Counted from the stretch's first letter, positions 1,248-19,744 are shown. The stretch is 64,000 nucleotides of DNA from Archaeoglobus sp. JdFR-37 (GCA_002010215.1 MTMY01000047.1:1-64000); one strand, 5' to 3'. Numbers and translations are program-made. Notes: generated by a model not told the origin, from the letters alone.

Positions 1248-2301
1248 TCATAAATAAAAATATAAGAAATTAATTAAATTGAGTCTAAAATTTTTGCCAG
1301 TACTTCGGATATTTGGCTCATCAAGAAAACAGAGTGGTCTGTGAGAGTGTCTGAGCTTCATCCTCACTCTCGCTTTGAGAGGAAGAAGAATATCATGATG
1401 CTGCAGGCATCTGACAGTCTCACCAGACGGCAGGAGAATCGTGTAGAGGTGGTGCACTCCCTGAAACACTCTCTCCACAATCACTCCTTCTCCATCCTTA
1501 TTTTCTTCAATATCAATGAAATCTGGTCTAATCAGAACTTTAACAATATCTCCCTCTGAGAATGATCCTTCAGCCCCAAATTCACCCAGAATTGTGACAA
1601 TTACTCCGTTCTCAACTCTCCCTTCAATAAAGTCTGCAATGCCAACAAACTGTGCTACGAAAGTAGTTGCAGGCATGTGAAAAACCGCCTCAGGAGTGCC
1701 GACCTGCTTAAGCCTGCCCTCTCTCATAACACCTGTCCTGTCTGCCATGAATAAACCCCCCTCCTGATCATGGGTGACGAAGATTGCCGTGATTCCAGCT
1801 TCCGAAAGCATCTTTCTGATATCTGTCCTTATCTTCTTCCTGAGATCGACGTCGAGGTTTGAAAACGGCTCATCCAGAAGAATTACCTCCGGCTCAGAAG
1901 CAAGAGAACGGGCAATAGCAACCCTCTGCTGCTGCCCGCTTGAAAGCTCGTGTGGGTACCGTTCCTCCATTCCGGAAAGCCCAACAAGTTCCAAGGATTC
2001 TCTGATTCTCCTCCTCACTTCATTCTTTCCGAGGTTTCTCAGTCCAAACGCCACGTTTTCATAGACAGTCATGTGGGGAAAGAGTGCGTAATCCTGAAAG
2101 ACTATGTCAACCTTCCTCTTCTCAGGCGGTACCCAGATGCTTTTTCCTGCAACAGACATGGTACCTATCTCAACCTTCCCGCTATCTGGCTTTTCAAGCC
2201 CGGCAATCAGTTTTAGCGTTGTTGTCTTGCCACAGCTAGAGGGGCCGAGAAGACAGAATATCTCCCCTTCTCTTTCATCTCGACTATCTGCACTGCAGCA
2301 C
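1248..2301 (-). pseudogene. Decayed Fe3+/polyamine-type ABC transporter ATPase (FbpC/PotA-like)
   Basis: VFQDYALFPHM, LSSGQQQR, LLDEPFSNLD and a TOBE tail in ORF 1248..2159; Walker A (EGEIFCLLGPSSCGKTT) lies upstream in a different frame, with a shift near 2220. Confidence 0.8.
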
Positions 2302-2328
2302 TCCTCACCTTAACACCCCCTTTGAAAT

Positions 2329-2443: not shown

Positions 2444-2923
2444 CTAAATAACAACGATCCTTCCAACCATCTGATTCTTGTGGTATTTGCACACAAGGTC
2501 GTAGCTTCCAGCCTCATTGAACTTGACAAGTATTGATTTACCTGGACCTAGTGGCTCATCGACCAGCGGCTCATCGTGGCCAGATTCGAAAATTGTAACG
2601 GTATGTGTGCCCTCTTCGTTCCTAAACTCAATAATCTGTCCTTCTTTCACCTCAATGTTTGCTGGAGAAAACTCAAAGTTCTTGAGAGTTACTGTAACAG
2701 CTGGCTCACCTTCATCAACAACCACAGCCTCTTCATGAGCCTCAGCCCCTTCTTCATGGTCTTCTTCAGCTTTTTCAGGTGTGCTTACCGGTGTGCTGGC
2801 CGGAGTACTTACTGGTGTACTAATTTCCTTAACCTCTGGTTTGGACTGCTGAGCACATCCTGCTACAAGAACTGCCAGAACCAGCAGTGCTACCAGAATG
2901 TATACTTTCCTCATATCTACCAC
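2444..2923 (-). CDS. Type-1 blue-copper (halocyanin/plastocyanin-like) lipoprotein
   Basis: Lipobox LVAGC, Pro/Thr/Glu/His linker, ligands H (GTHTV) and C-x2-H-x3-M (CKYHKNQM). Confidence 0.8.
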   Translation of the reverse strand: MVDMRKVYILVALLVLAVLVAGCAQQSKPEVKEISTPVSTPASTPVSTPEKAEEDHEEGAEAHEEAVVVDEGEPAVTVTLKNFEFSPANIEVKEGQIIEFRNEEGTHTVTIFESGHDEPLVDEPLGPGKSILVKFNEAGSYDLVCKYHKNQMVGRIVVI

Positions 2924-2944: not shown

Positions 2945-3412
2945 TCATCTCACCTCAAAAAACACCGAATCACCCAATACGGGCTGAGAAGGACCTTCAC
3001 CCACCATAGGGATGACGGTGTATCTGCCTTCGGGAGCGTCCTTACCTACATAAACTTCAAATGTTGCCTTCTGATTTTCTCCAATCACCCCTTCTTTAAC
3101 CGCGTAGATCTCCCCTTTAGGTGTGTAAATGACAATTTTTGCATAGAATCCAGAGTAGTCCATTTTCATTCCGGGAGCAAGGGCGTACACGGTTATCGAT
3201 AGCTTGGATGGCTTAGTGATGACGTTCTGGCTAACCAGTGCTGTAGGCTCCAACATATCTACCATCATCTGGCGCATTTCCTTCATGCGTTCTGTATTCT
3301 CATTTATTGGTTCATTTGTTATAGCCGTGTATCCCGATGTAATAGCCCAACTCGCTAGTATTAACACAAAAAACAAAATAGGGGGGAATTTTAAGACTTT
3401 ACCGAATCCCAT
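2945..3412 (-). CDS. Exported/membrane-anchored hypothetical protein with Met-rich segment and beta-rich domain
   Basis: N-terminal hydrophobic helix; RMKEMRQMMVDML; co-oriented within the operon. Confidence 0.6.
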   Translation of the reverse strand: MGFGKVLKFPPILFFVLILASWAITSGYTAITNEPINENTERMKEMRQMMVDMLEPTALVSQNVITKPSKLSITVYALAPGMKMDYSGFYAKIVIYTPKGEIYAVKEGVIGENQKATFEVYVGKDAPEGRYTVIPMVGEGPSQPVLGDSVFFEVR

Positions 3413-3414
3413 TT

Positions 3415-3822
3415 TTATTCACCCTCCACAATTATAACCCCTTTCATGAAATTATGCATGGGGCTGCACATTATCGTACACTTGAATACGTAAACACCTT
3501 CCTTATCCGCAACAAATTCAAAAGCCTTCTTTTCTCCAGGCTTTATTTCCCCAAGATCCACCCCTAGACTTTTTATTGTGAAGCCGTGGGTTACATCCAT
3601 CCCTTCTACAACAATCCTGACCTTTTCTCCTTTTTTCACCTTTATTACGCTGGGTTCAAAACCTCCTGCTTCTTTTACTTGTGCTCTGATAACAATGGTT
3701 TTGGGTTCTTTCTTCTCAGGATTAAGCACATCATCCCACATCGGAAGGAAAATGGCTGTTACTGATAGAACCACCAGCATTAAAGCCAAACCCTCAAACA
3801 ATACAATACCCTTCCTAGACAT
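3415..3822 (-). CDS. Membrane-anchored CuA-type cupredoxin (cytochrome c oxidase subunit II/NosZ C-domain-like)
   Basis: One TM helix, DVTHGF, and C-x3-C-x3-H-x2-M (CTIMCSPMHNFM). Confidence 0.8.
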   Translation of the reverse strand: MSRKGIVLFEGLALMLVVLSVTAIFLPMWDDVLNPEKKEPKTIVIRAQVKEAGGFEPSVIKVKKGEKVRIVVEGMDVTHGFTIKSLGVDLGEIKPGEKKAFEFVADKEGVYVFKCTIMCSPMHNFMKGVIIVEGE

Positions 3823-3831
3823 TTTTTCACC

Positions 3832-5856
3832 TCATCCTGCAACTATCCAAACGAATACCAGTCCAGCCATTGTATGGAGAATACCCATGACCAAAGTCGC
3901 TCTAAAGGCTTTAGCATGGTCGTTGAGGAGTTCCCTGGCTATATTATATGTGGTATTTATAGCTAGGGCCAATCCTATCAGCAACAGTGGTGCCTGAAGG
4001 TACGGCAATACTTCCGGACTGATTGGGTTCCACTCAAATTTCGTGCCAAATATGTTCCAGCCCCACCCTAGAGGATCAGAAAACGCAGTTATTGGGTAAG
4101 CCCAGTTCACCAGAATGAGTGAGAATGCAAAAGCGAGCCACAGGAACAATCCGTAGGGGACCAGTGCGTAACTGAAGGAAAGGAATAGTTGCCTCGTTGA
4201 TATGCCATTTTCACCTGCTAATTTCTTGGCAAGCCATGAGAATCCGTAAAATACTGCCGGATAACCCACAAGTGCAACCCCTGCTACTATTAATGCCCAT
4301 TTGAACCAGTTGTTTAGACCTTCCAGTGATGGTGTTAACAGACCAATTGTCGCCAGGTTGGCACCGTATATTATCCCCATGTTTCCCCAATCCTTAATCC
4401 AGAAGTAAGGGCCGAAGAAAACTAATTCGTAGAACACTGCCAATGTAAATCTTATGAAACCCATCCATGCTTCATCAAACTTATTCTTTGCTTTCGCAGC
4501 AATCTTGGCCAAATCTTGGCCAATCATTCTTAATTTAAGAGTCATGTTGTCGAGAGGGCAGGATCTAAGACATTCGTAGCACTGCCCACAGTAGGTATTC
4601 TCGTTGTGTCCACCAGGATATATCTTCCAAGGACACCCGTAACCGGTTGGGCTACCTCTTATGCACTCTTTTGGTCGATGTTTGTCACATACAGACTTGT
4701 CTCTACTTCTTACAGCAAAAATTGAAGCATTAGAGTGGTAACCTATGTATCCATTAGCCGGGCATATGCTTCTGCAGAAGTTTCTCTGGGGGTCAAATAT
4801 GATATGGGTAAACAAAGGTATGGCTATCAGCAATGCAAACAACAAACCAGTCACTACCGGTCTTGTAACAAGCCATGGCACGATAAGGGATATGCCAAGG
4901 AAGCTCAAGGCAGATACCCACATGTTATTAAGGCTTTTAGGCCACTTTTTACCCAAAGATGTCCACTTTCTTGGATTGTGAACACTGTATATTCTTCTTC
5001 TAGCAATCCACTCTCCGAATGCTGGAAGAGGACAGATAGTACACCAAGTTCTACTTCCAAATAAGATTAGAAACTCAACTGCCGCAAACCAGAGTATCCA
5101 CACGACGGCTATGGAGAAATTCTTGTTGCCTGTCGGGTTTCCAAAAAATCCGGCAGCTAATACTACCATGAAGATTAGGAGATTGGGTAAAATGAGGGTA
5201 AAGTGTGCTCCCCTCCACTGTAGGAACCTCTTGAGAATTGGTCCTATGACTCTTACCTTCAGCAGATCTAGATCTTTATCTAGGGAGACTCCAAGCATTC
5301 TGTTTTCTGGTGCTCGTGAAGTGTATAGGAGTGTTAAACCTGCAATAGTAAATGTTGAAGCCATTAGTATGTAAAAGAAGATGTTGGGTTTGACAATAAT
5401 ATCAGAGACCATAAATGGGTGTAGGGGGCCGCATGTTACAGAACATCGAAGCTTGATTTTTCCCGGTTTGTTGAAGGTTATCGGGCCGACTTCAACAATT
5501 TTTCCTGGTTCAATAACTATTCTATTGTCCCCAACTGCAGTAGGAGTGTATCCATCGATATAAAAGCCATGTGTGACATCTCCACTTATGACTCTAAATA
5601 CAATCCTGTCTCCCTCTTCGACTTCTAGAACACTTGGTTCTGATCCTTCAGGATATACTATTATTTTTGAACCGTCTTGAATTGCTTTTATTGCAAACCC
5701 AAACTGATATGCTTTGACAAATACTATCTTTGCATCCCCGTGGTCGTGAGGGTCGTTGAGCCACTCTTTTTCGCTAACAACATGGGCATTAACTGGGATG
5801 CCTAGAAGAAAGGCCAGTAAAATTGCTGAAATTATTACTAATATCTTACTACTCAT
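3832..5856 (-). CDS. CuA-type cupredoxin fused to a polytopic 4Fe-4S membrane protein (NosR/NapH/FixG-like)
   Basis: Signal peptide, DVTHGF + CSVTCGPLHPFM; many TM helices; C-x3-CP motifs (WCTICP, FCRSICP); ferredoxin motif CGQCYECLRSCP. Confidence 0.8.
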   Translation of the reverse strand: MSSKILVIISAILLAFLLGIPVNAHVVSEKEWLNDPHDHGDAKIVFVKAYQFGFAIKAIQDGSKIIVYPEGSEPSVLEVEEGDRIVFRVISGDVTHGFYIDGYTPTAVGDNRIVIEPGKIVEVGPITFNKPGKIKLRCSVTCGPLHPFMVSDIIVKPNIFFYILMASTFTIAGLTLLYTSRAPENRMLGVSLDKDLDLLKVRVIGPILKRFLQWRGAHFTLILPNLLIFMVVLAAGFFGNPTGNKNFSIAVVWILWFAAVEFLILFGSRTWCTICPLPAFGEWIARRRIYSVHNPRKWTSLGKKWPKSLNNMWVSALSFLGISLIVPWLVTRPVVTGLLFALLIAIPLFTHIIFDPQRNFCRSICPANGYIGYHSNASIFAVRSRDKSVCDKHRPKECIRGSPTGYGCPWKIYPGGHNENTYCGQCYECLRSCPLDNMTLKLRMIGQDLAKIAAKAKNKFDEAWMGFIRFTLAVFYELVFFGPYFWIKDWGNMGIIYGANLATIGLLTPSLEGLNNWFKWALIVAGVALVGYPAVFYGFSWLAKKLAGENGISTRQLFLSFSYALVPYGLFLWLAFAFSLILVNWAYPITAFSDPLGWGWNIFGTKFEWNPISPEVLPYLQAPLLLIGLALAINTTYNIARELLNDHAKAFRATLVMGILHTMAGLVFVWIVAG

Positions 5857-6274
5857 TTGATCCCTCCTTTAAAGTTTTATATTTCTTCCAAATTGTATCA
5901 GAGATTCTACTAAGGAGTTCAGAATAGGTTGGGTCAAGACCATCTGGATCTTTATCATCATTCCTCATTTCATCCAATTCGTCCCAGATAAACGAGGCTA
6001 GATTTTTACCTACCTCATACAGCTCGTTAGCCTCATCCACCTCTGAGGTATGCCTTCTGCCGGTAAGAGAAAGAACAGAATACAGAAGGATTGAACCACA
6101 ATAGGCTGCCTCACTTCTTTTATCAAGCCCTTCTTTTCTGGCTTTATAGATGTATTCTAGGACGTCAAGAGCGGGTTTAATGGCATCATCTCTGGAAAGA
6201 TCGTTTTTTCTGCTCCAGTACCATTTGTAAATGGCACTAGTTAGCTTCTGGATAGCTTCACTTTCCCCACCCAT
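5849..6274 (-). CDS. Hypothetical soluble helical protein, first gene of the copper/Fe-S operon
   Basis: 141-aa ORF with purine-rich RBS; its 3' end overlaps the start of the 674-aa gene. Confidence 0.6.
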   Translation of the reverse strand: MGGESEAIQKLTSAIYKWYWSRKNDLSRDDAIKPALDVLEYIYKARKEGLDKRSEAAYCGSILLYSVLSLTGRRHTSEVDEANELYEVGKNLASFIWDELDEMRNDDKDPDGLDPTYSELLSRISDTIWKKYKTLKEGSNE

Positions 6275-6369: not shown

Positions 6370-6894
6370 CTATCTCTTGCGATAGAATGTGTACATAATA
6401 AAAAAGATGGCTGCTAACATCAGTGCTAAAGCAATTAATCCATAATCCGATTTTGTTTTATTAGATGGGAAGAAATTTGGCTTCACATCGATGTAAAATC
6501 TATCCCCATATTGCTTTCCCTCATACTGAAACGTGTATAAAATAAAATATCTTCCTTCTTTGTCAAAGGTGTAGTTCAGTTCATAATGTCCCTTATGAGG
6601 GTTTTTTTGTAGTAAAAAGGTAGCGTAACTGCTATCTCTAGAAATTACAAGCGTAAGGTTGTTAACATCAATTGCCTCGAAGCTACTAGCATTCTGAAAA
6701 TGGAATACAATATTTACCACTTCTTCTGAAAGAGGAGAGTCTGGTTTTATTTCAGTAGTTATTAATACTCCATTTATTTTATCTGAATAATAAGTTGCTG
6801 CTAAAAGATTCATGTATATGCTTAATACAGAAATGTTTAATAATAATAGTAATAAAATAAAGGAAGTAATAGGAAGCCTTCTTGTAATTCTCAT
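6370..6894 (-). CDS. YtkA/FixH-like exported Ig-fold protein with C-terminal membrane anchor
   Basis: N- and C-terminal TM helices; KGHYELNYTFDKEGRYFI resembles the YtkA G.Y....F...G.Y pattern. Confidence 0.55.
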   Translation of the reverse strand: MRITRRLPITSFILLLLLLNISVLSIYMNLLAATYYSDKINGVLITTEIKPDSPLSEEVVNIVFHFQNASSFEAIDVNNLTLVISRDSSYATFLLQKNPHKGHYELNYTFDKEGRYFILYTFQYEGKQYGDRFYIDVKPNFFPSNKTKSDYGLIALALMLAAIFFIMYTFYRKR

Positions 6895-7002: not shown

Positions 7003-7350
7003 ATGAATGATAGAAAAAAGAGATATCTTAAGTACCTGTGTAACGAGCACTCAAATAAGATTTTGGTATCGCTGATGGAGAAAGAATTATCTGCAAATGA
7101 GATAAGCAAAGAGTGTAACATTCCCCTCCAGACAGTTTACAGAATCCTGAAGCAGCTGGAGAACGATGGGCTCATCAGAGTGAGCAGAATGAAGCTTGAT
7201 GAACAGGGCCATCACTTCAAAATATTTAAGGCTAATGTAATTCGAATTCTAGTAATGGTGGATGGGAATGGGGTTGAAATTAGGCTGTTTGAAGAAGATA
7301 AGGCAGAACGTCTCGCATCATTATGGAAGAGTCTTAAGGAGGTGAAATGA
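7003..7350 (+). CDS. ArsR/TrmB-like winged-helix transcriptional regulator
   Basis: SANEISKECNIPLQTVYRILKQLENDGLI HTH. Confidence 0.8.
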   Translation: MNDRKKRYLKYLCNEHSNKILVSLMEKELSANEISKECNIPLQTVYRILKQLENDGLIRVSRMKLDEQGHHFKIFKANVIRILVMVDGNGVEIRLFEEDKAERLASLWKSLKEVK

Positions 7351-7632
7351 GTGACCCATACAATTCTGCATGTAGTGGTTTTTACGTTTAAGATAATTGG
7401 TTTTGTTATAAGTATGTATATAGCATTATTAAGTTATCGCTCTTATATTAAGAAAGCAGATAGGTCCATGCTGTTTCTCGGTGCTGGATTTGCGGTAGTT
7501 TCTTTTGCCATTATAATCGAAGGAATAATTTACGAAGTGTTACTGTTAAGTTTAGAAATTGCTCACACACTCCAGAATGTTCTCTTCACAATAGGGATGA
7601 TACTAATATATTTATCACTAAGAGAAAATTGA
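7351..7632 (+). CDS. Small three-TM membrane protein coupled to the wHTH regulator
   Basis: Hydrophobic 93 aa; GTG start abuts the TGA of the regulator. Confidence 0.65.
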   Translation: MTHTILHVVVFTFKIIGFVISMYIALLSYRSYIKKADRSMLFLGAGFAVVSFAIIIEGIIYEVLLLSLEIAHTLQNVLFTIGMILIYLSLREN

Positions 7633-7777: not shown

Positions 7778-9916
7778 TTAGTGTAGAATTCTCATAGCAT
7801 TAAATACAGCTATCAGAGTAACACCGATGTCTGCAAATACTGCCTCCCACATGGTTGCCACCCCAAGAGACCCCAGAATGATGAAGAAACCCTTAACGGT
7901 CAGAGCAAACCCTATGTTCTGCCAGACTATATGCTGGGTTCGCCTTGCTATTCTGATGGATTTTGGTACTTTTGATGGCATATCGTCCATTATAACAACA
8001 TCTGCCACCTCTATTGCAGCTTCACTTCCAAGCCCACCCATGGCTATTCCAACGTCTGCTCTCGCAATAACGGGGGCATCATTTATTCCATCTCCAGCAA
8101 AGGCAACTCTACCGTTTCTACCTTTAAGCCCCTCTACAACCCTCACTTTATCTTCAGGCAGGAGTTCAGCATAGTATTCATCCACTTCAAGCTTATCTGC
8201 CACCTTCTCTGCAATCTCCCTGCTATCTCCTGTAACCATGACAACCCTACAGCCAAGCCTTTTCAGCTCATCCACTGCTTTCCTCGCATCCTCTTTCAGC
8301 TGATCCGCCACAATAATGTAGCCTGCATAAATTCCATTTACTGCAACATGAACAATAGTCCCTTCAACATCACATGAATCGTGCTCTATGTCCATTTCAT
8401 GCATCAGGGCATCGTTACCCACAATTATTGAATAGCCATTGATCTCTGCTCTTACGCCTCTGCCAGATATCTCTTCGTAGCTTTTGACCGAGTAATTTGG
8501 GTAACTTTTAACTGAACTGTCAACCTCTCCAGAATCACCTTCTCTCCAACTTATCTCGTCCTTCTCGTAAGCCTCCACTATTGATCTGGCGATGGGATGG
8601 TTGGAGTGCATTTCCGCAAGAGCGGCGTATCTAAGCACATCCTCCTGGCTAAATCCGTTCTTCGCCACTACCTCTGCAACCCTGAAATTTCCCTTGGTAA
8701 GCGTCCCTGTCTTATCGAAGGCGACGATTCCAGCTGAACTGAGAACGTCGATGAAATTCGCTCCTTTTACAAGTATCCCTTCCCTTGCTGCCTTCCCAAT
8801 TGATGCAAAGTAGCTCAGGGGAACTGAGAGGACGAGAGCACAGGGGCAAGAGATAACAAGCAGAACTAAAGCTCGATAAATCCAGGGTGTAAAAGGTTCA
8901 CCAAGCATTACAGGTGGGATTAACGCAACAGAAGAAGCAAGAGCTATGACCGCGGGGGTATAATAGCGGGCGAAGCGGGTTATGAACTTCTCCGCCATCG
9001 CTTTTCTGCTGCCTGCTTCTTCCACAAGCTGGAGGATTCTTGAGACTGTTGAGTCGCTGAATGGCTTTGTCACTCTCACCGTGATCAGACCACCCATGTT
9101 CACCATGCCTGAAAGAACTTCATCTCCTTCAGCAACACTTCTCGGTTCTGATTCTCCTGTTAAAGCGGATGTATCGACCGCTGAGGAGCCTTCAATGACC
9201 ATTCCGTCAAGAGGTATTTTCTCTCCTGGCCTTACAACAATGATGTCTCCAACCTTCACTTCTTCCGGCTTGACTTTGATGATGTCTCCATCAACCCTGA
9301 GATTTGCGTAGGTGGGCTTTATTTCCAGCAATGCCTTTATCGACCTACGGGATTTCCCTACTGCCAAATCCTGGAAGAACTCCCCAATTCTGAAGAAGAG
9401 CATCACACCGACAGCCTCAGGCATCTCATGAATTGCAATGGCTCCAATCGTCGCAATACTCATCAGGAAGTTCTCGTCAAATATGGCTCCTTTTGTGATG
9501 TTTCTGCCAGCTTTCCAGAGTATTCTCCAACCGGCAATCAGATAAGCTGAAAAGAACAGGCTATATTCGGCTAAGGGTAGAGAGTGAAGAGTCTCACCTA
9601 AGAATATTCCAGTTAAAAATAAGGCTGAAGATGCAATAATTGAGATCAGATCTTTTTTAGGGTCCTCTCCATCTTCTCTACCTTTATCGACATGAAAACC
9701 ACCAAAGTCATCGTGCTCAACCTCCACCTCTGGCTCAACTTTTTTGATGGTTTCCACAACTTTATCAATATCTTCAGCATCCACAACAAGCTCAGAGGTG
9801 GAGAAGTTTACAGCAGCAAATTTTACTCCTTCCTGTTTTTTCAACTCTTCCTCAATCTTGACCGCACAGGTTGCACAATCAAGACCCTTCAGCTTGTACC
9901 TCTTTATTCCCTTCAC
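7778..9916 (-). CDS. cadA: Heavy-metal (Zn/Cd) translocating P1B-type ATPase
   Basis: HMA domain GLDCATC, TGES, SCPCAL, DKTGTLT, GDGINDAP. Confidence 0.92.
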   Translation of the reverse strand: MKGIKRYKLKGLDCATCAVKIEEELKKQEGVKFAAVNFSTSELVVDAEDIDKVVETIKKVEPEVEVEHDDFGGFHVDKGREDGEDPKKDLISIIASSALFLTGIFLGETLHSLPLAEYSLFFSAYLIAGWRILWKAGRNITKGAIFDENFLMSIATIGAIAIHEMPEAVGVMLFFRIGEFFQDLAVGKSRRSIKALLEIKPTYANLRVDGDIIKVKPEEVKVGDIIVVRPGEKIPLDGMVIEGSSAVDTSALTGESEPRSVAEGDEVLSGMVNMGGLITVRVTKPFSDSTVSRILQLVEEAGSRKAMAEKFITRFARYYTPAVIALASSVALIPPVMLGEPFTPWIYRALVLLVISCPCALVLSVPLSYFASIGKAAREGILVKGANFIDVLSSAGIVAFDKTGTLTKGNFRVAEVVAKNGFSQEDVLRYAALAEMHSNHPIARSIVEAYEKDEISWREGDSGEVDSSVKSYPNYSVKSYEEISGRGVRAEINGYSIIVGNDALMHEMDIEHDSCDVEGTIVHVAVNGIYAGYIIVADQLKEDARKAVDELKRLGCRVVMVTGDSREIAEKVADKLEVDEYYAELLPEDKVRVVEGLKGRNGRVAFAGDGINDAPVIARADVGIAMGGLGSEAAIEVADVVIMDDMPSKVPKSIRIARRTQHIVWQNIGFALTVKGFFIILGSLGVATMWEAVFADIGVTLIAVFNAMRILH

Positions 9917-9922
9917 TTACTC

Positions 9923-10306
9923 TCACCTGGTTTCACGTTCCTCTCCAATATGCTCCAGAGCTATGTCAAGAATAGCAGCCACATGTTCATCGTCGAGACT
10001 GTAATAAACATTTCTGCCCTTCCTCCTGTATTTCACCAGCTTTTTGTCCCTCAAAACTCTGAGCTGATGAGATACTGCTGAGACGGATAAGCCTGTAATT
10101 GTGGAAATATCGCAGGTGCAGAGTTCATGCCTGGACAAAGCGAGAAGTATCTTGATGCGAGAAGAATCGCCGAATGCCTCTAGAAATTCCGCCAGTTCCA
10201 CTATACGCTCATCTGATGGCAGGCTTGAGGTTACTGTCTCTAGATATTCCCCTGTGCTTCCTCCTTTGCACACTGGTACTCTCTCACTTTTCTCACTTTT
10301 TTCCAT
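9923..10306 (-). CDS. ArsR/SmtB (CadC-like) metal-sensing repressor
   Basis: ELCTCDI, SAVSHQLRVLR, YYSLDDEHV; likely start is the ATG at 10306. Confidence 0.88.
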   Translation of the reverse strand: MEKSEKSERVPVCKGGSTGEYLETVTSSLPSDERIVELAEFLEAFGDSSRIKILLALSRHELCTCDISTITGLSVSAVSHQLRVLRDKKLVKYRRKGRNVYYSLDDEHVAAILDIALEHIGEERETR

Positions 10307-10328
10307 ATTTGAACAATTGCTCAAATAT
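10305..10328. promoter_or_regulatory. SmtB/CadC-type operator overlapping the repressor start codon
   Basis: ATATTTGAACAATTGCTCAAATAT, a 24-nt palindrome with one mismatched pair, just downstream of a minus-strand TTATATA box. Confidence 0.75.
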
Positions 10329-17401: not shown

Positions 17402-17782
17402 ATGAATGAGAAGCAAAGGCTAATGCTTGGCATAGCCGTTATAGGCTTCGTTATACTTGTTTTGGCATCATTTATGGGTAACCTCACACCTTACAAGAGC
17501 GTATCAGAGGTTGTTGCGGCAGGAAAAATGGAAAACGTTCAGGTTAATGGAACAATCGTTCCTGGTTCAACGGTTTATTATTCTGAAAACAACACCCGAA
17601 TTTTTGAGCTAACAGACGGAAAGGCCAAGATGAAGGTTGTTTTTACTGGAGCACTGACGAACTATCAGGAGGGGATTCCGGCAGTTGTCAGGGGTAGCTA
17701 CAAGAATGGAGCATTCTACGCCGAGGAAGTGCTGTTGAAGTGTCCCAGCAAGTATCAGACCATTGAGGAAGAGGGAGAGTAA
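17402..17782 (+). CDS. ccmE: Cytochrome c maturation heme chaperone CcmE (CxxxY variant)
   Basis: N-terminal TM helix, OB-fold, LLKCPSKY. Confidence 0.88.
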   Translation: MNEKQRLMLGIAVIGFVILVLASFMGNLTPYKSVSEVVAAGKMENVQVNGTIVPGSTVYYSENNTRIFELTDGKAKMKVVFTGALTNYQEGIPAVVRGSYKNGAFYAEEVLLKCPSKYQTIEEEGE

Positions 17783-19744
17783 TTGGACCCGGGATATTTT
17801 CTTCTGATCCTGTCTTTACTAAGTTCAGCTTATGCAACATATGCCTTTTATTCGGGAGTGAAGAGTAGAAGAAAGCATTTGCTTGCAAGAGCTGAAAGCA
17901 CCGTTTACATTTATACTGCCCTTCTGACTCTTGCATACATTCTTCTAACATATTATTTCCTTGCCAGAGATTTTGGTCTACTCTACGTTTACAGCTATTC
18001 TGACAGGCATCTCTCAACCCTCTACACTATAAGTGCTGTGTGGGCTGGAAGAGAGGGGTCATTACTTTTGTGGGCACTGTATCTGGCAGTAATTAATTCT
18101 GCTATACTCAGGTTTGAGAAAAAGGATGCTGTAACGGCTTTTAGCCTCTCAATATCCTCTTTTGTAGTTTTATTCTTCAACATTCTTCTTCTGACACTGT
18201 CAAACCCCTTTAAACGCCTTGAATTTACACCACCTGATGGGATCGGCTTGAACCCACTACTCAGAACTCCTGAAATGGCACTCCACCCGCCGACCATCTT
18301 TTTGGGCTATGCGGCGACAACCATACCCTTCGCTTTGGTAATCTCGGCCGTGTACTTCAAAGAAGGTTGGTTGAAGAGAGCAAGGTTCTGGATTCTCTTT
18401 TCATGGCTTTTTCTGAGCATCGGCATCTTTCTTGGAGCTTGGTGGGCTTACAAAACGCTGGGATGGGGAGGTTACTGGGCCTGGGACCCGGTTGAGAATG
18501 CCTCGCTGCTGCCCTGGCTCACAGTTTCTGCATTGATCCATGGCATAATGGTGGAGGAAAGGCGAAAAGGACTGGGAGCGTGGAATTACTTTTTGGCCAT
18601 CATTTCATTTGGTCTCGTAATACTTGCAACTTTCATAACTAGAAGTGGAATCATAAGTAGCGTTCACGCCTTTGGGGAGAATCCAGAGGGATGGATGTAC
18701 TTGCTCCTCATCGTTCTTTCAACGGCAGTAGGTTTAGTTCTCTATAATTCCAGAAAAGAGCTGTTTCGCGACTCTCTCGATCTCTCGTTTAATAGGGAGA
18801 CAACAATCTTTGCCAACATCATGCTTCTGCTTCTATCAACCTTCACAATACTGCTGGGAACTCTTGCACCCTTACTTGGAGAGGACGTTCAAATCACTAG
18901 ACAGTATTATGACAGGATAGAGATACCGCTTGGAACAGCCTTGGTGATTCTGTTGGGCATCTGCGCTGCCATAAACTGGAGATCAGACAGAGATACTTTC
19001 TTAAAATCCAGTAGAGTTGCAGTTGCTGGTGGAGTCATCGCATTCATAGCGGTCTTTGCAACTACTAAGTTAATTGTAGCATCGCTGGGGGCAGCAATCT
19101 TTGCTTTCTCACTTCTTACACACATTCAGAACTTGAAAATTTCAGATACGCGAAATCCAAGGAAGTTTGGAGGATATATTACTCACATTGGGATAATCAT
19201 TCTTTTCCTTGGGGTGATGGGTTCTTGGATTTATGAGGAGAGTTACAAAAATGTGGCATTGGAACTTAACCAGCCAAAAAATGTTGGGGGATATACTCTG
19301 CTGTATAGAGACAACCAGATGGTGGATGAGCACGACAAGCTGGTTGTTACTGCTGTTGTGGAAGTTTACCGTGGAGATGAGCTGGTGGGAGTATGTAAGC
19401 CCCACTTGAAAGTGTATAAGCTCAACAGGCAGGACAGGGTTGTGAGTTCTGTAGAAATTCTCTCAAAGCCAACCCATGACATCTATATTGCCGCATCTGG
19501 GTTTTCGGAAGACCTCAAGAAAGTTTTTATAGAGCTTTATGTGGTTCCACTCATCAGTTTTGTCTGGGTAGGTTCTGTTGTTATGATGGCTGGCGGGACA
19601 TACGCTGTTTTCAGTAAGATGAGCATTACTGGGATAAATATTGCTGGAGAGGATAGAGAGGGGAGAGAGATTGGTATCGATGTAAGCAAAGATGGAAAGA
19701 CTAGTGGAAGAAAAAGCCGGAAAAAGAAGGGCAAAAAGAAATAA
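17783..19744 (+). CDS. ccmF: Cytochrome c synthetase CcmF
   Basis: GLNPLL, HPP, WGGYWAWDPVENASLLPW, SVHAF. Confidence 0.93.
   Translation: MDPGYFLLILSLLSSAYATYAFYSGVKSRRKHLLARAESTVYIYTALLTLAYILLTYYFLARDFGLLYVYSYSDRHLSTLYTISAVWAGREGSLLLWALYLAVINSAILRFEKKDAVTAFSLSISSFVVLFFNILLLTLSNPFKRLEFTPPDGIGLNPLLRTPEMALHPPTIFLGYAATTIPFALVISAVYFKEGWLKRARFWILFSWLFLSIGIFLGAWWAYKTLGWGGYWAWDPVENASLLPWLTVSALIHGIMVEERRKGLGAWNYFLAIISFGLVILATFITRSGIISSVHAFGENPEGWMYLLLIVLSTAVGLVLYNSRKELFRDSLDLSFNRETTIFANIMLLLLSTFTILLGTLAPLLGEDVQITRQYYDRIEIPLGTALVILLGICAAINWRSDRDTFLKSSRVAVAGGVIAFIAVFATTKLIVASLGAAIFAFSLLTHIQNLKISDTRNPRKFGGYITHIGIIILFLGVMGSWIYEESYKNVALELNQPKNVGGYTLLYRDNQMVDEHDKLVVTAVVEVYRGDELVGVCKPHLKVYKLNRQDRVVSSVEILSKPTHDIYIAASGFSEDLKKVFIELYVVPLISFVWVGSVVMMAGGTYAVFSKMSITGINIAGEDREGREIGIDVSKDGKTSGRKSRKKKGKKK

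Follow-up and report, generated by a model that had tools for sequence, protein, structure and literature searches.

The Fusion Gene and Its Operon

The window, by which we mean the whole 64,000-nt stretch analysed from Archaeoglobus sp. JdFR-37 (MTMY01000047.1:1-64000), contains on its minus strand the 674-aa reading frame (3832..5856) that an earlier, sequence-only reading had pointed out. Its product, P0001, is a CuA–NapH-like–five-helix fusion protein encoded in a tight five-gene run, all on the minus strand, that specifies a 141-aa protein of unknown family, P0001, a second CuA protein, a 155-aa membrane-anchored protein, and a cupredoxin lipoprotein; no terminal enzyme or acceptor is encoded in this operon. 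The gene for the 141-aa protein (5849..6274) overlaps the start of P0001; homologues are present upstream in related archaeal loci, and an Atlas search with this neighbour returned nothing. The second CuA protein (3415..3822; 135 aa) is membrane-anchored and carries H79, C115, C119, H123, and M126; this protein and the fused head of P0001 both present a full CuA ligand set, as in the CuA–NapH-like–CuA module described below. The 155-aa protein (2945..3412) has a Met-rich linker and is conserved downstream in seven related archaeal loci; the Atlas search yielded leads below 0.9 only, one of which (score 0.87) suggests that it is possibly Ig/MG2-like. The cupredoxin lipoprotein (2444..2923) presents type-1-like ligands (H107, C145, H148, and M152), making it a candidate mobile carrier.

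The run is preceded by a minus-strand gene (6370..6894) for a 174-aa exported, C-terminally anchored protein that is weakly YtkA-like (E = 0.053) and whose same-genus orthologue gave a YtkA-like match (E = 8.5e-5) that stayed below the cut-off; this protein is a possible CuA assembly factor, judging from that similarity. Next come a divergent winged-helix regulator and a DUF7521 membrane protein (7003..7632, plus strand), a pair that also adjoins the module in three other loci (L071, L102, and L103), and, beside the operon, a P1B ATPase with an ArsR-like repressor (7778-10324, minus strand), a pair also found near the module in L103 and L105. The ATPase carries what we take to be a Zn/Cd-type signature. 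On the other side of the operon, the Walker A motif of an ABC ATPase (window 1248-2310, minus strand) lies 5′ of the first in-frame start codon; the gene is probably damaged at its 5′ end, and no permease or binding-protein gene was found alongside it. CcmE- and CcmF-like cytochrome c maturation genes were read by eye from the ORF list at window 17402-19744 (plus strand).

The CuA Head of P0001

A homologue search (7993 candidates scored) identified 125 P0001 homologues, with Archaeoglobaceae names among the close ones; P0059, from A. fulgidus according to its source, is 44% identical to P0001 and fused in the same way. As had been claimed, P0001 starts with a predicted signal peptide (residues 1-24; 5785..5856, minus strand, as for all P0001 features below), recognised by its hydrophobicity as an N-terminal helix that closes with an A|H cleavage-like site; cleavage there would leave His25 at the N-terminus. 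The His patch PHDHGD noticed earlier is present at residues 36-41 (5734..5751) but is not a general feature, being limited to the nearest relatives; an H-x-H-G patch was found within the first 70 residues of 5 of 120 proteins. His as the predicted first residue, followed by H-D-H (window 5734-5784), is conserved in the nearest subclade only. By analogy with the Cu site of CopC, the N-terminal His and the H-D-H of P0001 might form an extra Cu site.

The head proper is a CuA cupredoxin domain (residues ~42-157; 5386..5733), predicted to lie outside, in which H96 is followed by C138-x3-C142-x3-H146-x2-M149. The full CuA ligand set previously reported is thus present, and the head matches CuA domains both in sequence (Thermus ba3 CuA domains, E values from 1.8e-11 to 1e-8) and in predicted fold (Z = 12.5 and rmsd 3.3 over 104 aligned residues, against the CuA domains of oxidase subunit II and NosZ). 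All five side-chain ligands are retained in 64 of 74 aligned heads and altered in the other 10; with 125 homologues and this level of retention, the motif set of P0001 is far beyond chance.

Iron–Sulfur Motifs, Membrane Helices, and Predicted Topology

Downstream of the head, a linker helix and four NapH-like membrane helices (residues 159-353; 4798..5382) match Fer4_5 (E = 1.1e-5) and score far under the cut-offs of the curated NapH/MauN models (26.2/234 and 26.4/213 bits, score/cut-off). They are followed by a ferredoxin-type domain (residues 390-434; 4555..4689) and by five extra C-terminal membrane helices (residues 460-673; 3838..4479) that are absent from NapH and NosR and agree with a description in the accessible text of PMC4683180. 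The count of about ten transmembrane helices proposed earlier was confirmed, with ten helices after the signal helix (the linker helix and nine from residue 215 onward), as was the CxxCxxCxxxCP ferredoxin motif (residues 423-434). An alignment of 98 rows required corrections to the remaining motifs. Two C-x3-CP motifs had been described; the second, C361-x3-C365-P (4759..4776), is correct, but the first is C272-x2-C275-P (5029..5043; 97 of 98 aligned proteins), and both are predicted to lie inside. The sequence-only reading had also overlooked a second, irregular cluster motif, C390-x2-H393-x4-C398-x9-C408-P. Among the 96 rows with a residue at position 393, 78 have His and 18 Cys, and position 426 is Cys in 90 rows, Asp in 7, and Glu in 1; we infer that these are exchanges typical of cluster ligands, and the ferredoxin domain likely holds two [4Fe-4S] clusters, one of them ligated by His393.

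Lys and Arg residues per loop alternate along the membrane part (8, 9, 17, 3, and 3 versus 1, 1, 2, and 1), with 9 and 17 in the Cys-bearing loops and one or two in the outer loops; the helices of an AlphaFold model (pLDDT 93.7, pTM 0.92) agree with this pattern. CuA is thus predicted outside and all Fe–S-type Cys motifs inside. The proposal that P0001 connects Fe–S to copper across the membrane would have been undermined by placement of both on one side; positive-inside counts and helix pattern predict opposite sides.

No conserved membrane His pair was found in the 98-row alignment, where the best-conserved membrane His is present in 38 rows. No haem b is therefore expected, which rules out a haem b wire and implies that an intermediate such as quinone is needed between Fe–S and CuA. 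Hole hopping along Trp and Tyr was ruled out as well, CuA being too weak an oxidant. Invariant aromatic and polar residues in the outer membrane half (N246, W253, W256, Y476, W573, and D594) suggest a quinone pocket. For residues 199-674, there was no clear match among solved structures, and a relative may exist beyond these match lists: Foldseek returned nothing at E 0.001 for the membrane part, a PDB profile search matched ferredoxin motifs alone, and the best VIA match (Z = 8.8, rmsd 4.0, 124 aligned residues) was an unrelated helical protein, in a search that barely covered the NapH-like half.

Distribution of the Module and Its Fused and Split Forms

The architecture had been presented as unusual; it is in fact widespread, and its split form has been published. 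Besides the 125 homologues, a GTDB scan (best 80 of at least 565 relatives, giving 79 loci) provided 82 membrane-domain copies after one fragment ORF was dropped. All 82 of these copies are coupled to CuA, 23 by fusion and 59 through a CuA gene at most 1.3 kb upstream, and 63 are followed by a downstream cupredoxin. Because the GTDB ranking favours CuA, the coupling test was repeated with membrane-only queries. In the class to which the window belongs, the module occurs in 15 of 96 genomes, with 13 fused and 3 split copies; each of these 16 archaeal copies comes with a cupredoxin head, whose ligands are altered in 4. In Chloroflexota, 31 of 251 genomes matched and 30 loci were taken, comprising 12 close copies (one from the centre genome) and 18 distant ones; CuA is fused or upstream in 11 of the close copies, the twelfth being cut by a contig end, and no cupredoxin lies within 1.5 kb of any of the 18 distant ones.

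In a quick IQ-TREE tree (94 rows; 5 short rows excluded), the fused or split state changed 8 times, 7 of these changes being forced by supported branches, compared with 28.5 changes for shuffled labels. The module is thus conserved while its fused form recurs; having arisen or been split several times, the fusion is ordinary in itself. On sequence grounds, P0001 is a member of this widespread CuA–NapH-like–CuA module, with a function that is predicted from sequence. In one locus (L110:8106-9976, genome G001), one base is missing from the linker as compared to three fused relatives, which splits the head from the membrane domain; this split may be either real or a sequencing error.

A ligand-altered subfamily (L104:5200-7272, L106:8352-10373, L107:3605-5584, and L108:3769-5736, with their downstream cupredoxins) presents H-D-C-N-D/E in the head and a second domain without Cys, and is located after an EB_dh-type molybdoenzyme operon; its site may bind a harder metal or be metal-free. 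A CuA-less sister family (L129-L144) has the same nine-helix Fe–S protein beside YtkA-like, SCO, and other assembly-type genes, in loci that resemble fixGH-type clusters.

Flavoprotein Inserts and Other Fusions

Eighteen relatives (17 of 23 longer ones, plus P0114) carry a Fer4_20 plus Pyr_redox_2 flavoprotein within the ferredoxin domain, inserted between the equivalents of C390/H393 and C398; we take this insert to be an NAD(P)H-type flavoprotein of the GltD/SudA type. P0001 itself has no such insert. Four of these relatives (P0123, P0124, P0127, and P0131) combine it with a CuA head, three of them also having a thioredoxin-like domain, so that single natural chains span NAD(P)H-type flavoprotein, Fe–S, membrane, and CuA domains. 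Two metagenome contigs contain ORFs with both CuA head and insert (L147:910-2448 and L148:4292-7540, each cut at a contig end; identities of 98% and 75% to P0123 were reported for the pair); the other loci of the metagenome scan presented a flavoprotein match only, apart from one with the C-terminal part. In L148, a plain copy and a flavoprotein-bearing copy flank one regulator pair.

Related genes also occur next to the module: the triad of L071 has an FrhB-type gene between its CuA gene and its membrane gene, and GltD-type genes lie directly downstream in L011 and L033. Other fusions include P0122, in which an EB_dh haem-b domain (a molybdoenzyme subunit type), CuA, and the membrane domain form one chain; CuA–cytochrome c fusions, which are frequent downstream; YtkA fused in two relatives; and one distant relative, P0143, with cNMP and sigma-54 activator domains.

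Gene Neighbourhoods and the Host Genome

Among the 79 loci (best 80 of at least 565 relatives), nosZ was found in 4, a large molybdoenzyme in 5 (one distant), rdhA/B in 4, and multihaem cytochromes in 7. Counted by type, 18 of these loci have respiratory genes, 21 copper-handling genes (P1B ATPases, HMA, YHS, CopCD, and small multicopper oxidases), 2 both, and 42 neither, many loci being short; for the 41 loci of at least 15 kb, the corresponding numbers are 11 respiratory, 16 copper-handling, and 15 neither. In the window's class, copper-handling genes are present in 5 of 16 loci, this window among them. In four loci (L030, which has three copies, L016, L076, and L082), the fused form directly follows rdhA/rdhB-like genes, a frequent site of rdhC, and cytochrome c3 and cupredoxin genes lie upstream. 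A PCYCGC-family lipoprotein (PF13798), a candidate CuA copper chaperone, is encoded just upstream of the CuA gene in 44 of the 79 loci from the best 80 of at least 565 relatives (e.g., L045:9399-9845).

PF04205, the NosR-type FMN head, was found in none of the 96 class genomes, and both nosZ-bearing genomes of the class have the module. Neither haem-copper subunit I nor nosZ was found in 8 of the 15 module-bearing class genomes. Oxidase-like haem-copper subunit I genes (E values from 1e-64 to 1e-96) occur in three genomes of this anaerobic class (G054:C1:41875-43215, G044:C27, and G043:C137), one of them in the window's genus.

In the host genome (1.97 Mb, 94.5% complete), the contig with P0001 also has a NorBC-like pair, together with narK and narGHJI genes assigned by eye; the pair (G000:C3:87000-98000, L005) comes with a UbiA/CtaB-type gene and a cytochrome c and adjoins the narK and narGHJI-like genes. 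The sole COX1-family gene of the genome lies 83 kb from P0001 and is paired with a cytochrome c. The genome also has many multihaem cytochromes, and its Rieske and cytochrome b genes rule out the module as its only quinol outlet. Searches of this 94.5% complete genome found no nosZ, no NirS or multicopper/NirK families, and no full GltD-type flavoprotein, and BLAST found neither SCO nor PCYCGC among its ORFs.

Relation to Known Systems

In A. fulgidus, AF0141-AF0144 were called a "nitrate reductase-like respiratory complex" by Hocking et al. (2015; PMC4543118), whose accessible text proposes that its inner [4Fe-4S] domains accept ferredoxin electrons, notes the complex next to nosZ in Ferroglobus, and, in the supplement, reports a 5- to 19.4-fold increase for these genes with CO and sulfate. 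AF0142-44 share with the P0001 locus the order CuA, nine-TM NapH homologue, CuA; in that account, the genes are separate and uncharacterised, whereas P0001 and P0059 are fused. Arshad et al. (2015; PMC4683180) described HCO II–NapH–HCO II within a nar operon of Methanoperedens, which resembles the P0001 module in its NapH core with five added helices, its two flanking CuA proteins, and, as far as the accessible text goes, the lack of NapG. These genes are split and lie in a narGH operon, unlike the fused P0001 with its operon without a terminal enzyme; the same source reports high transcription of the module, at levels matching those of the nar enzyme genes, and its location within nar operons that have no membrane anchor of the usual kind. 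Another paper, again in its accessible part, mentions the module clustered with cooS (PMC13079737).

The sequence-only reading had seen a NosR-like layout with the FMN domain replaced. CuA does occupy the place of the FMN domain as described for NosR (PMC5928378, accessible text), but P0001 is not a NosR member: the outer FMN motif [S/T]G[A/S]TX[S/T] is absent and PF04205 gave no match. NosR and RdhC (PceC) share with P0001 an outer redox domain, a membrane module with paired Cys-Pro motifs, and (in NosR) two inner [4Fe-4S] clusters; that source states that the paired Cys motifs have yet to be assigned a function. P0001 relatives also occupy equivalent positions, beside nosZ and after rdhAB. 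The differences are CuA instead of covalent FMN, the likely His-ligated cluster, and the five extra helices; where NosR has two CX3CP and two [4Fe-4S] motifs, P0001 has one CX3CP and one CX2CP, the latter in first position, and one canonical and one irregular cluster motif. NosR is encoded with nosZ, which was not found in the 94.5% complete P0001 genome.

NapH/MauN and the NapH–NapG polyferredoxin fusion (PMC5449189, as accessible) resemble P0001 in the four-helix core, inner clusters, and fused or partnered outer carrier. However, the outer carrier of P0001 is a Sec-type N-terminal copper domain, as opposed to the Tat-exported Fe–S domain of the NapG type; NapH/MauN have four helices and P0001 ten, and no NapG/MauM polyferredoxin partner was found among the neighbouring ORFs scanned.

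P0001 gave no CcoG model match at E 0.1 and has no ccoNOQP context. Presumably, CcoG/FixG/RdxA share with it the paired Cys-Pro motifs and two clusters, and copper-handling neighbours are common to both; in P0001, five helices replace the outer domain at the C-terminus, and CuA is carried in addition. Haem-copper oxidase subunit II and the NosZ CuA domain have the fold and all five side-chain ligands in common with the P0001 head, but P0001 has neither a catalytic subunit I nor a CuZ propeller, whether fused to it or next to it. Identity with oxidase subunit II was ruled out by the CoxB score (30.1 bits, cut-off 147.7) and by the lack of an adjacent subunit I. Judged by these comparisons, P0001 appears to work like NosR, RdhC, and NapH, yet fails membership of each.

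Predicted Electron Transfer

P0001 could well be a CuA-headed member of the NapH/NosR/RdhC membrane iron–sulfur family that acts as an outward electron conduit, a reading to which we give about as much weight as to everything else taken together; when readings are combined, export of electrons to CuA is fairly probable. Electrons from a donor in the cytoplasm would enter at the predicted inner Fe–S clusters, cross the bilayer by way of a membrane intermediate, probably in a quinone pocket, and leave through the predicted outer CuA for the second CuA and then the cupredoxin lipoprotein. From these copper proteins they would reach an external acceptor, for which the best candidates are multihaem cytochromes and the cytochrome-c-dependent NO reductase encoded on this contig. 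As donor, this archaeon may use ferredoxin or F420H2, since a full GltD-type flavoprotein was not found in the genome. Metal binding is presumed from the ligands, and an outward direction from general knowledge of potentials, CuA (about +250 mV) having a much higher potential than quinol or ferredoxin. Efficient tunnelling spans about half the width of a bilayer, here a crossing of about 30 Å, so that a bridging cofactor would be required. Of the single-chain Fe–S-to-Cu conduit originally proposed, the placement on opposite sides and the flavoprotein/CuA fusions speak for the idea; a direct Fe–S-to-Cu wire gains no support, as the membrane part offers no conserved His for haem and an intermediate is therefore needed.

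An NAD(P)H-type flavoprotein on the inner Fe–S domain of a CuA-bearing chain supports a through-membrane conduit. The CuA coupling, the FrhB-type gene of L071, the EB_dh and CuA–cytochrome c fusions, and the nosZ, molybdoenzyme, rdhA, and multihaem cytochrome contexts also count for it, molybdoenzymes and RdhA needing electrons and no copper, as does the combination of PF04205-free class genomes with a module in both nosZ-bearing ones. The published expression in Methanoperedens and A. fulgidus and the clustering with cooS point in this direction as well. Against it count the missing His pair for a crossing of ~30 Å; the operon without a terminal enzyme and the 42 of 79 loci without markers, many of them short; the finding that respiratory genes (18 of 79) are no more frequent nearby than copper-handling ones (21 of 79), all from the best 80 of at least 565 relatives; the Rieske and cytochrome b genes, with which the module is not needed as sole quinol outlet; and the absence of the flavoprotein insert from P0001 itself. 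The 8 of 15 class genomes without subunit I or nosZ argue against a simple respiratory role, and CuA at +250 mV is a poor fit as RdhA donor.

By analogy with NapH-type quinol dehydrogenases, quinol oxidised near the outer face might instead reduce CuA directly, with CuA replacing the NapG or NosR flavin domain and the inner Fe–S being structural, regulatory, or a side input. NapH segments are proposed to oxidise quinol and hand electrons to NapG (accessible text of PMC5928378 and PMC5449189), the location in nar operons without the usual anchor (PMC4683180) fits such a role, as do the six invariant residues of the outer half, and no long transmembrane jump would be required. We nevertheless consider this unlikely, as it leaves unexplained the 18 insert-bearing relatives and the near-invariant cluster ligands.

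A CcoG-like role, in which P0001 would reduce Cu(II) to Cu(I) so as to supply copper, assemble cuproproteins, or confer resistance, the CuA proteins being its outer redox hands and not respiratory links, is improbable to the same degree. This analogy is based on CcoG being a cupric reductase (PMC8456105, as accessible). It draws on YtkA-like genes beside the CuA-less sister group (15 of 18 loci, with an HMM partly seeded from them; five Pfam-confirmed and six loci close kin), the two YtkA fusions, and copper-handling genes in 21 of 79 loci (best 80 of at least 565) and 5 of 16 class loci; these nearby copper genes may, however, serve the module's own CuA sites only. Copper reduction also leaves the EB_dh fusion unexplained, as well as the occurrence of the module in operons of the narGH, rdhAB, and EB_dh types; copies beside a molybdoenzyme retain the membrane domain and have lost CuA ligands, the P1B ATPase adjoining the operon has, in our reading of its motif, the Zn/Cd-type signature, and several module genomes lack another large cuproenzyme among those searched.

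Less probable still is an inward or sensing role, in which P0001 would take electrons from outer dehydrogenases or signal the outer redox or copper state to a regulator. The degenerate copies after EB_dh-type molybdoenzyme genes, possibly dehydrogenases, the two-component systems flanking many loci, and the regulatory domains of P0143 point that way; transfer from CuA to quinone or Fe–S would, however, be uphill by at least 300 mV and against the membrane potential, and P0001 has no output domain for sensing. Transcript levels in Methanoperedens that equal those of nar enzyme genes (PMC4683180, accessible text) also argue against such a role. A bifurcation of quinol electrons, in which CuA would be the high-potential arm, is very improbable.

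More speculatively, and with clearly less than even probability, the family might be a plug-in wire without haem that leads across the membrane from NAD(P)H, F420H2, or ferredoxin in the cytoplasm to an outer CuA, feeding N2O, nitrate, organohalide, and multihaem reductases interchangeably. The module may also be the missing electron donor of NosZ in archaea without NosR and of nitrate reductases that lack an anchor, as in Methanoperedens. A fused, likely heat-stable P0001 with coloured CuA on one face would offer a one-protein assay for electron crossing, the flavoprotein-bearing relatives a still more direct one, and the purple CuA readout would, if the reading is true, open the mechanism of NosR, NapH, and RdhC to test in one polypeptide. 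While the split form was published previously (Hocking 2015, PMC4543118; Arshad 2015, PMC4683180; accessible text), no description of the fused form or of flavoprotein insertion was found in the literature searched; subscription papers and supplements (Arshad 2015; Buttet 2018, Fig. S1) might mention them. New here are the 18 flavoprotein-insert relatives, four of them with a CuA head, and the CuA–EB_dh fusion.
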